Sequence record: PP445229.1
Direction: 5' to 3' (one strand)
DNA length: 64,000 nt
Source of the DNA: Escherichia phage EC.W2-6
Positions 3,224-16,191 of the stretch are shown piece after piece (the stretch's first letter is position 1; each line of letters starts with the position of its first letter). Both the position numbers and the translations under genes were made by a program. The notes beneath the pieces were generated by a model. The model was not told where the DNA came from, did no database searches, and saw only the letters and a list, made by a program, of their open reading frames with translations.

Positions 3224-5014
3224 ATGTCAAAGATCATTTTGGGAGACACAGGTTGTAAGGAATGTATCTCTCATGGTCGTGATAAAACCCACAACCACAT
3301 GATTCTCTTCCGTAACGAAGAGACTGGTGAGGAGTGGGGAAGTTGTAACCGTTGTGGGAATTACGAAGTGTTCGAAAAGGGCACTACACCTACTCCAAAC
3401 GAGAAGAAAGAGTTATCCCCTGAAGAGTTGAGAGAAGTCTTAGATGATTGCTTAGAGCTTCCTCAGGGTGAACTTACTCGCCGTTTAATCCCAAAAGCTG
3501 TATCAGAGCGTTTTGAGTGTCGTATTGGCCTCAGTCAAACTGATGGTCAGACACCAGACAGTTACTTCTTTCCTCGTGAACGTGATGGAAACATTGTCGG
3601 ATATGAGGTTAAGCTGCTAGATAGTAAGAAGTTCTATTACGTCGGCAGTGTGAAAGAAGCAGATTTGTTCGGTATGGCACAAGCTCAACGTGGAGATGTG
3701 TACAACAAGAAGCTGTTCATTTTTGAAGACCCGCTATCCTGTATGTCAGGTTTCCATGTCCTTACAGCTTTTACAAATGCAACAAACATTAAACCAGCAT
3801 GTGTTTCTTTACCGTTCGGTGCAGGTTCAATCTCTTCTGTGTTGTCTCGTAACCGAGACTTCGTAAATGGTTTTGAGGAGGTTGTGCTCTGCATGGACAA
3901 CGATGATGCAGGTGAGATAGCTTTAACAAAAGGTCGTTCTTTATTCCCTCATGTTAAGTTTGCTCGTATTCCTAAAGGAACTTTCCCATACAACGGTGTG
4001 GAGAAAGAGATTAAGGATGCGAATGACATGCTTCTGTCTGGTCGTGGTCAAGAGTTATTCAACATTCTCAAGTACTCAGCAAAGCGGGAATCTCCTGCTG
4101 GAGCTGTAACAATCTTTGATTGTCTTGATGATGCTCTGAAGAAAGCGGAGTGGGGTATCCCATATCCGTGGAAGACTCTGAATGAGATGACCTTCGGTAT
4201 TCGATGGGGAGAGGTGGTAGCAATTGGTGGTGGAGTAGGGAGTGGTAAAACACTCATTGCTCACGAGCTGGTTGCCCATCTGTGCTTAGAGCATGGTTTT
4301 AATGGAGGTGGCTTCTTCTTGGAAGAGAAGGTAGGCATGTCTGTTAAGAACATTGCTGGTAAGTCAGCATCAATTCCTTTCCACCGACCTGATGTTGAAT
4401 ATGATGAGGAGGATTTGCGTAATGAAGCACTTCGTTATGCAGACAAATTCTTCTTGTATGACAACTTCGGACAGAACGAATGGGAAGACATTAAACAGTG
4501 TATCCGTTTCTGGGTAGTTGAAAACCAGTGTAAGTTTATCATCCTTGATAACATTACCGCTCTGGTATCTCATTTAACACCTTCAGAGATTAACACTGAA
4601 ATCAGTAAGATTGCTTCCGAGCTTGCTGGTATGTGTAAAGAGTTAGACTTTACCGCTTTCGTGCTATCTCACCTTAATGCTCCGGCAGGTGGTGCTCCTC
4701 ATGAAGAAGGTGGACAGGTACGTGAAGTGCAGTTCACTGGTTCTCGTTCCCTTATGCGTTGGTGTCAGTGTATCATTGGCTTTGAGCGCGACAAGCAAGC
4801 TGATGGCTTAGCTAAGAACCTCTCAGTCATTCGATTACTGAAAGAACGTAACTACGGTCAGACGGGTGTCTGCTATACTAAGTATATCAGTGAAACCGGT
4901 AGACTTGTAGAAAGGGAAGACTTTGAAGTTGATGAAGATAATCCATTCGTTTTAACTAACGGAGAGGATGCAGCTTCTCTCGTCAACCAAGCAGATGGAG
5001 CTTCACCGTGGTAA
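3224..5014 (+). CDS. DNA primase/helicase (T7 gp4-like)
   Basis: N-terminal Cys4 zinc ribbon (CKEC ... CNRC), TOPRIM-like acidic motifs ([18 protein letters not shown]), DnaB-type Walker [10 protein letters not shown] and Walker [11 protein letters not shown]. Confidence 0.9.
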
Positions 5015-5565
5015 AGAAAAAGAAGAAAGTGTTTGCATTCGATATCGAGAGTAATGCACTGTACGATGACATAACTAAAGTATGGTGTATTTACATCTTC
5101 AATGTTGAAACTGGTGAAAGGTGGGGCTATCGGCCTCACCAAATTGAAGACGGGATTCGTAAACTTACAGAAGCTGATGTGCTCGTTGGTCATAACATTA
5201 TTGACTTCGACTTACCTGCTCTGAAGAAGATGTATCCTTCTTTGATTAAATATCATTTTAACGTCTTTGACACTCTATGTCTTAGTCGATATCTTAAACC
5301 TGACCGTATTGGTGACAGTCCTGAGTATCCGAAAGGCGACCCTAGACATGGCCCAAGAGGTCATGGCTTGAAGCAGTGGGGTGAGTTCTTAGAGGAACTT
5401 AAAGGAGATTACGGTGAGCAAGAGGAAGCATGGGATGCTTTCACTGAAGATATGTTTGCTTATTGTGAACAGGACGTTAACTTAACCGTTAAGGTTTATA
5501 AATACTTGTGTGAACTCACAGGATTCGACCCTTACGACCCACCTTCATTATATTGGAAAATGTAA
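5008..5565 (+). CDS. DNA polymerase I family, 3'-5' exonuclease domain (N-terminal part of a split T7-like DNA polymerase)
   Basis: [10 protein letters not shown] (Exo I), [13 protein letters not shown] (Exo II), YCEQDV (Exo III); collinear with the N-terminus of T7 gp5 as I recall it. Confidence 0.85.
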
Positions 5566-5566
5566 A

Positions 5567-13907: not shown

Positions 13908-14330
13908 ATGCCATTACCAGCTAGACACCAAAACCGTTTCTTAGTTCTTAAGTGGGATGATATCGAAATGAATCTCACTGAACATGAACTTGATTTGTTC
14001 CATGAACTACTGTCAGAGATTCGCTCTGGTATCCCTGAACGTCAGTATGTGGTTATCAGTGATAAGCACCCTCAAGAGTTTGAAGAAGCTTGGGGTATGA
14101 AGTTGGCTTACATTCAGAGAGCTATCCGAGAAAGAGAAGAAGTCGCTAACCAAAGGGTTGTGGCTCATTTAGTACGAGAGCAACCTCGTGAAGCTAGGGC
14201 TAACCATGCACCACCTCCACCTACTCCTCGGATAGTTGTTAACGGGGCGGTTAGGGCTTACAGTTATGAAGCTACCGCGTTAGATGTGATAGAAGATAAC
14301 CAAGCATTTACAGATTTACTTTACCAATAA
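13908..14330 (+). CDS. hypothetical protein (140 aa)
   Basis: ORF immediately upstream of DNA polymerase catalytic gene. Confidence 0.5.
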   Translation: MPLPARHQNRFLVLKWDDIEMNLTEHELDLFHELLSEIRSGIPERQYVVISDKHPQEFEEAWGMKLAYIQRAIREREEVANQRVVAHLVREQPREARANHAPPPPTPRIVVNGAVRAYSYEATALDVIEDNQAFTDLLYQ

Positions 14331-14346
14331 TTTAAAGGAGTATAAA

Positions 14347-16191
14347 GTGAGCAACCCGGACGCTCTTCCATTTTTGACAGAGATGACTGTCGCTGATATA
14401 ATCTCTAAGCAAGCAAAGCACGGAGTTAGTTTCAACCGAAGAAATGCTCGGTGGTATGTTCACCTCCTTAAAGAGATTATTGTTAATATTGACAGAGAGT
14501 TGATTCCTCTCTTACCTAAGATGAGATTAGATGGCTCTACTTATATGAAGCCGTTTAAGAAGTCTGGAGCTTTACAGAAGTGGCCTCAAGCTTATTGTGA
14601 TAGGGTTGGGCTGAAAAGAGAAGACATTGGTGGAGCATTCACCTGTGTCGAATATGTAGACTTTGATCCATCGAAAGATGCACGAGTTAAAGAAGCTCTT
14701 ATGGATGAGGGCTTTCTTCCTCCAGAGTTTAACGTATCTAAGAAGCCTTGGAATACTTTCGAAATTAAGAAAGATATGAGAAAGTATGGAACATACCAAG
14801 CATGGTATACTGCTTGGATGCGAGGTAATGCTAAACAGAAGCAGACAGCCGAGATGGTTGACGCTGATATTAGAAAGTTCTTAGAGAAGCATTTTCGGTT
14901 TAAAACTAAGAACTACATGAAGGCTTACGTATTTGGTTTGGGATTAAACCCTAATCGCCGTAATCCTGTAACGTTTGATGAGATTAAGAAAGCACTAGCC
15001 ACATCAAACAAGTGGCCTACAGCTCCTACAAACCTCGAGGAGACTCTTGAAGAAGGGTTAGGGGGTGAGCTAGGGAGTGTCGGAAGTTTGCTTAAGAGAC
15101 GCGTTGTGGCGGCTCACAGGCTAGGTCTTATCAGTGGACTCATAGCAAAGGAACGCGAAGATGGTAAACTTTCGGCAGAAGCTAACAGCTGCGCTACGCC
15201 GACTTTTCGATTCAAACATCGTATCGTGGTTAATATTCCCTCCCGTGGTCTGTTTGGTCACGAGTGTCGCAGTTTGTTTGAGTCTGACTATAACTCAGAC
15301 AGTGATCACTCTCGTCCTTTCGTTATTACTAACGTTGTTCCTGATGGTTGTTATATACGAAAAGGTACTAACGTAATTTACGAGAAAGGTAAGCCGGGGA
15401 AGAAAGACAAACCTGTAGGCGCTTACAAATATTACATACCCACTGGTAAAGAAGTATTCTTAGGGTATGATGGTTCTGGACTGGAACTTCGTATGCTCGC
15501 TCACTACCTCATTAAAGAGTGTAGGGATATGCTTGCTGAGGCAATTGAAGAGAACAACCCAGCTAAGAAAGCTCTGGCAGAACGTGGTTTAGCTTCTGCT
15601 ATTATGTATCGTGATATTCTCCTTGAAGGTGATATCCACTCCCACAACCAGAAACTTGCTGGTCTTCCTACTCGTGACAACGCTAAGACATTTATCTATG
15701 CATTCAACTACGGTGCTGGCGATGCTAAGCTTGGTTCAATTGTAGGTGGTGGGGCTGACGAAGGTTCAGTGATGCGAGCACGTTTCTTAGCAGAGAACCC
15801 ATGTATTGCAATCCTCATTGATCGTATGACAGAGAAAGCTGCTCAAGGATACTTGATTGGAGTTGATGGTCGTAAGATTACAATGAGACGGGATGCCACT
15901 GGTAAGGTTATGGTTCATAAAGCCCTTAACACACTCCTGCAATGTGCTGGTGCTGTTGTTATGAAATATGCTATGATGTTCCTTAACAAGTGGATTGAGA
16001 AAGATAAGGTTCGTTGTGCTAAGGTAATTGATATGCACGATGAAGGTCAATTCTCAGTAAACCGTAATGATGTACAGAAACTCAAAGAGCACACTGAGCT
16101 TTGTGTTAAGAAAGCTGGCGAGTATCTGAACATGGAATGTCCTCTGGCATCTGATTGTCAGATTGGACTTAACTGGATGCATACACACTAA
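14347..16191 (+). CDS. DNA polymerase I family (T7 gp5-like), polymerase domain; C-terminal part of split polymerase
   Basis: GYDGSGLELRMLAHY (motif A), LPTRDNAKTFIYAFNYGAGDAKLG (motif B), VIDMHDEGQF (motif C); AAAGGAG Shine-Dalgarno before GTG start. Confidence 0.85.
   Translation: MSNPDALPFLTEMTVADIISKQAKHGVSFNRRNARWYVHLLKEIIVNIDRELIPLLPKMRLDGSTYMKPFKKSGALQKWPQAYCDRVGLKREDIGGAFTCVEYVDFDPSKDARVKEALMDEGFLPPEFNVSKKPWNTFEIKKDMRKYGTYQAWYTAWMRGNAKQKQTAEMVDADIRKFLEKHFRFKTKNYMKAYVFGLGLNPNRRNPVTFDEIKKALATSNKWPTAPTNLEETLEEGLGGELGSVGSLLKRRVVAAHRLGLISGLIAKEREDGKLSAEANSCATPTFRFKHRIVVNIPSRGLFGHECRSLFESDYNSDSDHSRPFVITNVVPDGCYIRKGTNVIYEKGKPGKKDKPVGAYKYYIPTGKEVFLGYDGSGLELRMLAHYLIKECRDMLAEAIEENNPAKKALAERGLASAIMYRDILLEGDIHSHNQKLAGLPTRDNAKTFIYAFNYGAGDAKLGSIVGGGADEGSVMRARFLAENPCIAILIDRMTEKAAQGYLIGVDGRKITMRRDATGKVMVHKALNTLLQCAGAVVMKYAMMFLNKWIEKDKVRCAKVIDMHDEGQFSVNRNDVQKLKEHTELCVKKAGEYLNMECPLASDCQIGLNWMHTH

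Follow-up and report, generated by a model that had tools for sequence, protein, structure and literature searches.

A two-gene T7-type DNA polymerase with a thumb insertion at the site of the thioredoxin-binding domain, and a phage-encoded thioredoxin, in a phiEco32-like Escherichia phage

T7-type DNA polymerases whose exonuclease and polymerase parts are encoded by separate genes have been described before. For the LUZ24 group the split was noted in 2012 (PMC3517423), and a passage of that paper cites a 2008 phiEco32 paper for the same two-gene organization. For phage YF01, the split exonuclease and polymerase were described together with a 5'-3' exonuclease (PMC9965538). In the 2021 study of Privateer, a thioredoxin was kept in all C3-morphotype phages examined there, and the explicit hypothesis was put forward that this thioredoxin couples to the T7-like polymerase and improves its processivity (PMC7881722). 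In cyanophage Syn5 the phage thioredoxin was redox-active and increased genome replication; its possible roles as reductant and as processivity factor were weighed, AlphaFold 3 placed host thioredoxins, and not the phage one, on the thioredoxin-binding site of the polymerase, and the authors favor activation of the reductase (bioRxiv 10.1101/2025.10.05.680603). By our account the Syn5 protein is the sole phage thioredoxin studied experimentally, and a literature search for thioredoxin in Kuravirus and for trxA in Gordonclarkvirinae found no experiments. The present analysis deals with a stretch of 64,000 nucleotides from Escherichia phage EC.W2-6 (PP445229.1), hereafter the window, which encodes an exonuclease at 5008-5565, a thioredoxin at 9294-9569 and a polymerase at 14347-16191.

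Both the split and the idea of a thioredoxin clamp are already published, and the split polymerase, in the form given in a preliminary description of this DNA, adds nothing beyond the published work on phiEco32-like and LUZ24-like phages. New in this analysis is an insertion of 50 residues, predicted to be well ordered, in the polymerase thumb at the site of the T7 thioredoxin-binding domain. The locus as a whole is best explained as a standard phiEco32-like replication module, with the activities of Pol I on three genes and with a thioredoxin for which a redox role is somewhat more likely than a dedicated clamp role. We assign this reading a probability of roughly 75%.

The region 5008-16191 is 100% identical over its full length, and at the same coordinates, to Escherichia phage EC.W8-1 (PQ030848.1, 76,408 bp), as determined by megablast against the GenBank phages. 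The phage belongs to Kuravirus (Gordonclarkvirinae) and is phiEco32-like. The same search matched the region to 107 phage records, 59 of which cover at least 80% of its 11 kb, and across the genus Kuravirus the identity is 92-100%. Several of the records (SGF2, SU10, KM01) already carry two genes annotated as "DNA polymerase" here. The three open reading frames (ORFs) lie at the coordinates given in the preliminary description and agree with the GenBank annotation of PQ030848.1. Its count of more than 25 ORFs between the polymerase halves was too high: the gap of 8,781 bp between the exonuclease and polymerase genes holds 23 annotated genes in PQ030848.1 and 21 in SGF2. All 23 are intact, several with clear functions. 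The window contains no ribonucleotide reductase, as had been claimed, and by annotation and Pfam none is present in the other 12.4 kb of the 76.4-kb genome. A sliding-clamp gene was not seen in the genome annotation. The other large early ORFs form a cluster of amidoligase, ATP-grasp and glutamine amidotransferase genes.

The gene at 5008..5565 (+ strand) was assigned by Pfam, T7 alignment and PHROG to a stand-alone 3'-5' proofreading exonuclease subunit of the DEDDy type with 185 amino acids (aa). The protein scores 38.5 bits against Pfam DNA_pol_A_exo1 (PF01612; cut-off 23.6), aligns to residues 3-181 of T7 gp5 with E 5e-11 and matches the dedicated PHROG "DNA polymerase exonuclease subunit" families phrog_403 and phrog_38876 with E 2e-73 and 6e-39. 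Judged by the DEDDy pattern (ExoI DxE, ExoII Nx(2-3)(F/Y)D, ExoIII Yx3D), its motifs are complete, with D12/E14, N63/D68 and Y152/D156. The gene starts with GTG at 5008, with GGAG at 4997-5000. This start is overlapped by the stop codon (5012-5014) of a T7 gp4-like primase/helicase gene (3224..5014, + strand; Pfam DnaB_C and Toprim_2), whose product has an acidic C terminus with an aromatic terminal residue (...ADGASPW). The adjacency of the two genes is kept in LUZ24, 7-11, Privateer and metagenomic relatives, with spacers of one small ORF in 7-11 and the relative L009 and of three in L015. The third activity of classical Pol I is likewise found on its own gene: a separate 5'-3' exonuclease of the flap-endonuclease type is encoded at 23064..23882 (+ strand), is annotated "exonuclease" and matches Pfam 5_3_exonuc_N with E 6e-7, but at 29.7 bits, which is below the gathering cut-off of 34.3.

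The gene at 14347..16191 (+ strand) encodes a T7-type family A polymerase subunit of 614 aa comprising thumb, palm and fingers, identified by Pfam, fold match and motifs. It has a GTG start at 14347 and an AAGGAG Shine-Dalgarno sequence at 14335-14340. The protein scores 83.1 bits against Pfam DNA_pol_A (PF00476; cut-off 34.3). Motifs A (D375/E380), B (R443/K447/Y451) and C (H564-D565-E566) are invariant across 83 homologues, and the AlphaFold2 (AF2) model built on the same number of homologues reached a predicted local distance difference test score (pLDDT) of 92.6 and a predicted template modeling score of 0.82. In Foldseek the best matches of the fold in the Protein Data Bank (PDB) were T7 gp5 chains (E 6e-27 to 1e-19), with Bst, Klenow and Taq at about 1e-16; the polymerase profile gave 9.9e-73 for T7 and 5e-30 for Klenow in the PDB.

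All exonuclease motifs in 5008-5565 and polymerase motifs A, B and C in 14347-16191 that had been reported were verified, and the two-gene T7-type polymerase is genuine and lineage-wide. The two proteins together span T7 gp5 and are collinear with it end to end: the exonuclease corresponds to residues 1 to about 207 and the polymerase aligns to residues from about 204 to 704. At the junction, the C terminus of the exonuclease lines up with T7 HYFPPEIDF...TTFW and the polymerase start MSNPDALPFLTEM with T7 SESLEAVDIEH; the break therefore sits in the exonuclease-polymerase linker of gp5. A fused metagenomic homologue of 618 aa (P0118) carries both domains on one chain; its identity with the separate proteins is 36% for the exonuclease and 43% for the polymerase. 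Because the split is genuine, the two ORFs jointly cover gp5 and a fused homologue exists, assembly of exonuclease and polymerase in trans would be the natural expectation.

An artefact behind the split was considered in the preliminary description, which also proposed a comparison with related genomes. At least 59 genomes that were sequenced independently have the same layout, as do four further groups of phages. This rules out that the split stems from faulty assembly, a frameshift or decay into a pseudogene, and leaves such an origin with practically no probability. It is further contradicted by the 23 intact genes in between and by the presence of all catalytic residues and an own start site in each ORF. 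An intein or intron joining the halves is ruled out by the 23 intact genes between them and by the separate start site of each half.

The gene order primase/helicase, exonuclease, variable cargo, polymerase was found in LUZ24, 7-11, Privateer, BUCT695 and several metagenomic contigs. The distance from exonuclease to polymerase gene is 2.3 kb in LUZ24, 5.6 kb in Privateer, 6.7 kb in 7-11 and 8.8 kb here. By this sequence comparison the split is ancient, common to LUZ24-like, 7-11-like and Privateer-like phages. In this family the polymerase gene is also repeatedly interrupted anew or flanked by endonuclease VII or HNH elements, which yields "part II" and "part III" pieces; such cases were seen in AidaStucki_Bas93, LUZ24 (L010:17999-20305), BUCT695 (L017:10001-12470) and Vp_R1 (L016:85-2056). 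In the window itself, 1.2 kb separates the polymerase gene from an HNH endonuclease gene that precedes it (12633-13124). The polymerase gene is a hotspot for homing elements, and this may be how the exonuclease/polymerase break arose.

The thumb insertion was located from alignments and the AF2 model. It comprises aa 56-105 of the polymerase (14512..14661, + strand) and is bordered on one side by a long helix (aa 31-55) and on the other by the conserved "FDPSK..." helix, whose T7 counterpart is "FNPSS". In T7 the thioredoxin-binding domain is a 76-residue fragment between thumb helices H and H1 (PMC8010470). A look for a thioredoxin-binding loop by structure prediction, as proposed earlier, found an insertion predicted to be ordered at this site of the thumb. 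With 50 aa it is shorter than the 72-76 aa of the T7 domain, and in the family alignment two T7-specific loops, KGGTEMFC and GIFKKPKNKAQREGREPCELD, are absent. The same alignment matches STYMKP of the insertion with T7 SWYQP, KKSG with PRTG, QKWP with PKYP and REDIGGAFTCVEYVDFDPSK with REYVAGAPYTPVEHVVFNPSS. The C-terminal edge of the insertion, GGAFTCVEYVDFDPSK, aligns to T7 AGAPYTPVEHVVFNPSS, and in a profile-to-T7 comparison just this edge was significant (18.9 bits, independent E value 0.004). Residues P57, P69, G74, G96, P97 and F98 are invariant or nearly so and are among the most conserved of the thumb. With a pLDDT of about 91 the insertion is predicted to be ordered on its own; its net charge is +3. 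In the T7 complex 1T7P, the active-site surface of thioredoxin presumably contacts the strand around gp5 Thr327, which we take to be the position of the conserved G-G/A-P-F/Y-T motif. In T7, the basic loops are where gp4 and gp2.5 attach by their acidic tails. The insertion could be a docking site for a thioredoxin of host or phage, for the acidic helicase tail or for both.

Every member of the family has the insertion, including the LUZ24-like polymerases and the fused homologue P0118; it is therefore not a Kuravirus adaptation to the phage thioredoxin. The possibility that the insertion, or the extra polymerase segments specific to Kuravirus, track the phage thioredoxin was rejected for want of co-occurrence. 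Polymerases of the long type occur without a thioredoxin gene in the inspected DNA of L008 and BUCT695, and a polymerase of the short type occurs with a mini-thioredoxin of 70 aa in L009.

The thioredoxin gene at 9294..9569 (+ strand) encodes 91 aa and was identified by Pfam Thioredoxin (PF00085, E 2e-13) and an AF2 model (pLDDT 92.2). Its active site contains CAPC, as described before (C12-A-P-C15), so that it reads QCAPC and not the canonical WCGPC; cis-Pro56 and Gly73 are conserved. The model has four strands (residues 3-8, 32-37, 57-61 and 68-72) and three helices (13-27, 43-49 and 77-89). The best PDB fold matches are E. coli TrxA, with a root mean square deviation (rmsd) of about 1.7 Å and about 30% identity, and the model superposes on the TrxA chain of 1T7P with an rmsd of about 2 Å. 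The N-terminal strand and helix of E. coli TrxA, about 20 aa, are missing here and in all phage orthologues. By its modeled fold the protein is an N-terminally shortened thioredoxin of TrxA type, and not a glutaredoxin or NrdH. The comparison covered all orthologues found, namely those from Kuravirus, 7-11, Privateer and three metagenomic lineages, and P0121-P0135. At identities down to about 40%, all have kept C-x-P-C, a K-x-M/I-A-P segment, the cis-proline and the equivalent of Gly92. Both tryptophans of the TrxA active-site region are lost in the orthologues, and the position of TrxA Gly74 varies, with Ser in Kuravirus, Ala in Privateer and Gly in others. The gene is kept in about 100 Kuravirus genomes.

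Within the window, the thioredoxin gene is part of a block for nucleotide metabolism and redox functions (6938..10241, + strand, by Pfam), with a dCTP deaminase at 6938-7471, a Dps/ferritin-like protein at 8482-9045 (Pfam Ferritin; PHROG "DNA binding protein", E 1.5e-54) and ThyX at 9585-10241. In Kuravirus it is flanked by the Dps-like gene and ThyX. A similar block recurs in the relatives with a dCTP deaminase, a thioredoxin, a protein of about 90 aa, a Dps/ferritin and either an ATP-cone protein or NrdD, often together with ThyX and PhoH; the order deaminase-thioredoxin-x-Dps is found again in 7-11, Privateer, L012, L013 and L014. The association with ribonucleotide reductase genes was compared. 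Thioredoxin genes are present in Kuravirus with no reductase in the genome, in 7-11 with none in the 28-kb stretch examined, in Privateer with NrdA and NrdB, in L012 with NrdD and a radical-SAM activase, in L013 with NrdB, and in L014 with just a small ATP-cone protein. L009, which has the mini-thioredoxin, showed no reductase, and in L015 a glutaredoxin lies beside NrdAB, between the exonuclease and polymerase genes. No thioredoxin was found in 27 kb inspected of LUZ24, which has no reductase, in 21 kb inspected of BUCT695, which has three reductase genes (NrdD and NrdAB), or in 22 kb inspected of L008, which has NrdD. The thioredoxin strictly tracks neither polymerase type nor reductases. 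Because its link to the reductases is loose, co-occurrence settles neither the clamp nor the redox hypothesis.

In most relatives the Dps-like gene accompanies the thioredoxin gene and a small ORF, a hint that they have an iron or redox function in common; PQ030848.1 lists the copy at 8482-9045 as "integrase". In L013 (6220-6516), L014 (5665-5937), L008 (5817-6080) and Privateer (L007:15034-15330), the Dps-like gene is followed by a gene for a stand-alone ATP-cone protein of 87-98 aa. In other relatives a full NrdD takes this position, and the ATP-cone proteins may be what is left of NrdD, or allosteric modules that act alone. The part of the window's ORFs that was scanned against Pfam gave no ATP-cone match.

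In the replication module that we favor, translation of the proofreading exonuclease (5008-5565) would be coupled to that of the T7 gp4-like primase/helicase, the polymerase (14347-16191) would be translated from its own ribosome-binding site and the 5'-3' exonuclease would be supplied from 23064-23882. At the fork, exonuclease and polymerase would come together again through non-covalent contacts and form an enzyme resembling gp5. The thumb insertion might serve as a docking site for a thioredoxin, be it that of the host or of the phage, or for the acidic tail of the helicase, and the redox role of the phage thioredoxin would lie in the supply of deoxynucleoside triphosphates (dNTPs), by recycling host NrdAB here and phage reductases in the relatives. 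Such a redox role is at least as likely as a dedicated clamp role, and the two are not exclusive. Several points weigh against this module as drawn. The association of exonuclease and polymerase in trans is one that we infer from the sequences. It is the primase/helicase gene, not the polymerase gene, to which the exonuclease gene is coupled, so that the exonuclease could ride on the helicase. Against a purely redox role, the thioredoxin persists in Kuravirus and 7-11, where phage reductases are missing, and is itself missing from the syntenic block of BUCT695, a phage with NrdD and NrdAB. That the exonuclease does not rejoin the polymerase at all, and is free or tethered to the helicase, proofreading in trans like an epsilon subunit or serving recombination or repair, appears improbable. 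In favor of this reading, the exonuclease gene overlaps the stop codon of the primase/helicase gene and neighbors that gene directly, or almost so, in every relative examined, and between 2.3 and 8.8 kb separate it from the polymerase gene; however, the fused homologue P0118 and the end-to-end collinearity with gp5, including the linker, point to a retained gp5-like interface between the domains.

For the thioredoxin itself, two roles were weighed. In one, the phage protein binds the thumb insertion 1:1 as processivity factor and forms a three-piece holoenzyme that is independent of host TrxA and for which redox activity is dispensable. The preliminary description had proposed such a clamp rather than a redox enzyme; the insertion at the thioredoxin-binding site speaks for this proposal, but the clamp role is not established. 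The T7-type polymerase carries at that site G96-P97-F98, the loop residues most conserved in the thumb, the C-terminal edge of the insertion aligns with the T7 domain, and the thioredoxin superposes on TrxA, including the 1T7P copy, with the cis-Pro loop and the Gly92 equivalent kept. Its gene, located between those for the two parts of the polymerase, has been retained in 7-11 and in some 100 genomes of Kuravirus, phages without a reductase of their own, no sliding-clamp gene was seen in the annotation, and the hypothesis has been published for Privateer (PMC7881722). However, the LUZ24-like, BUCT695 and L008 polymerases have the same insertion and no thioredoxin gene in the inspected DNA, and the insertion is predicted to be ordered alone, is about 26 residues shorter than the T7 domain and resembles it with just 18.9 bits. 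A purely structural subunit would not need the strictly conserved CxPC, an objection that is weakened by the T7 case, since T7 binds only reduced thioredoxin. TrxA G74D is not known to support T7 growth, and at the position equivalent to Gly74 Kuravirus has Ser and Privateer has Ala, with both tryptophans of the WCGPC region lost. E. coli already supplies abundant TrxA, and in the Syn5 precedent it is the host thioredoxin, not that of the phage, that is predicted to dock. Taken together, a clamp role is possible but doubtful. We also consider it unlikely that the polymerase has three subunits in which the truncated phage thioredoxin replaces host TrxA as processivity subunit on a minimal binding domain of 50 residues. 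The other role, in which the thioredoxin is reduced by host TrxB and recycles ribonucleotide reductase or serves another thiol-dependent step and so raises dNTP supply, is held tentatively, with a chance somewhat short of even. The absence of a phage reductase had been taken to point to a clamp, and this argument fails: the orthologue shares its block with reductases in Privateer (NrdAB), L012 (NrdD) and L013, the host's own NrdAB depends on thioredoxin, and no orthologue, even at about 40% identity, has lost CxPC or the cis-proline. The microsynteny deaminase-thioredoxin-x-Dps(ferritin)-ATP-cone/NrdD, the glutaredoxin directly beside NrdAB in L015, the position of the Kuravirus gene between the Dps-like gene and ThyX, and the redox-active Syn5 thioredoxin, which raises genome replication and for which reductase activation is favored by its authors, are in line with a redox role. 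It is opposed by the lack of an own reductase in Kuravirus and 7-11, by the TrxA, TrxC and glutaredoxins that the host already has, and by the three reductase genes of BUCT695 without a thioredoxin in the 21 kb inspected; the redox activity of the phage protein is itself putative.

Kuravirus is suited to the clamp question, as its host is E. coli, a trxA deletion strain is available and there is no confounding phage reductase. A three-subunit clamp, if true, would be the first virus-encoded thioredoxin clamp and would define a minimal, compact thioredoxin-binding module of possible use in polymerase engineering; a processivity mechanism of T7 style would have become virus-autonomous. If the clamp is false, the result would support the view of phage thioredoxins as genes for dNTP supply.

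Further genes lie between the polymerase halves. Directly after the exonuclease gene, 5567-6928 encodes 453 aa with a weak match to Pfam PolyA_pol (CCA-adding "head"; E 7.5e-4, below the cut-off), and the product is annotated as a nucleotidyltransferase in relatives. Three abutting small genes at 7472-7669, 7669-7878 and 7878-8087 (65, 69 and 69 aa) all end in V/I-x-Y, share 26-30% pairwise identity (E 0.002-0.007) and may be a diverged tandem triplication. The 109-aa product of 11034-11363 matches Pfam Nlig-Ia (E 6e-35) and amounts to just Ia, the NAD+-binding domain at the N terminus of NAD-dependent DNA ligase, with no adenylation domain. It is called "NAD-dependent DNA ligase" in relatives and might modulate host LigA or NAD+ use. 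A very basic, low-complexity protein of 105 aa, rich in Gly, Ser, Arg and Lys and annotated as hypothetical, is encoded at 12326-12643 and is overlapped by a 92-aa ORF in another frame (12354-12632). Two adjacent small paralogues at 13204-13458 and 13460-13744 (84 and 94 aa) are 32% identical over the full length (E 1.6e-15) and share ...KTARTNV(L/M)LR...GKFISY...PFP(K/R)G; one of them is labeled "autotransporter adhesin" in GenBank, a label that looks wrong.

Compared with known systems, T7 gp5 (1T7P) is the best sequence and fold match for both halves. Motif B RDNAKTFIYxFxYGAG, with the equivalent of Tyr526, is common to both phages, as are the insertion between the thumb helices and a gp4-like helicase with an acidic, aromatic-ended tail. 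In contrast, gp5 is one polypeptide and here there are two genes, the thioredoxin-binding domain of 72-76 aa with two basic loops is replaced by 50 aa without them, and T7 uses host TrxA and encodes no thioredoxin, whereas this phage encodes one. The Kuravirus polymerase also has extra inserts relative to T7 at aa 135-240, 315-365 and 390-419. Cyanophage Syn5 likewise has a phage thioredoxin gene near a T7-like polymerase gene, but it has its own reductase and a single-chain polymerase. In LUZ24, PaP3 and tf (Bruynoghevirus) a "DNA polymerase exonuclease subunit" and a "DNA polymerase part II" are found; their polymerases share 39-42% identity with the one described here and likewise carry the thumb insertion, the exonuclease gene again overlaps the primase/helicase gene and an amidoligase/GGCT cluster lies upstream. 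Unlike here, the 2.3-kb gap in LUZ24 holds no nucleotide-metabolism genes and no thioredoxin, the LUZ24-like polymerase is about 65 aa shorter, without a thumb segment of about 25 aa and a 28-aa helix pair after motif A, and in LUZ24 an endonuclease VII element breaks up the polymerase gene once more. The closest system is phiEco32 and Kuravirus as a whole (gp74 exonuclease and DNA polymerase; Swiss-Prot EXO74_BPE32 and DPOL_BPE32, as quoted in the Privateer annotation), with the same genes, order and sequence and a thioredoxin that is 98.9% identical. There is no difference of substance, and the phage described here is one more isolate of this type.

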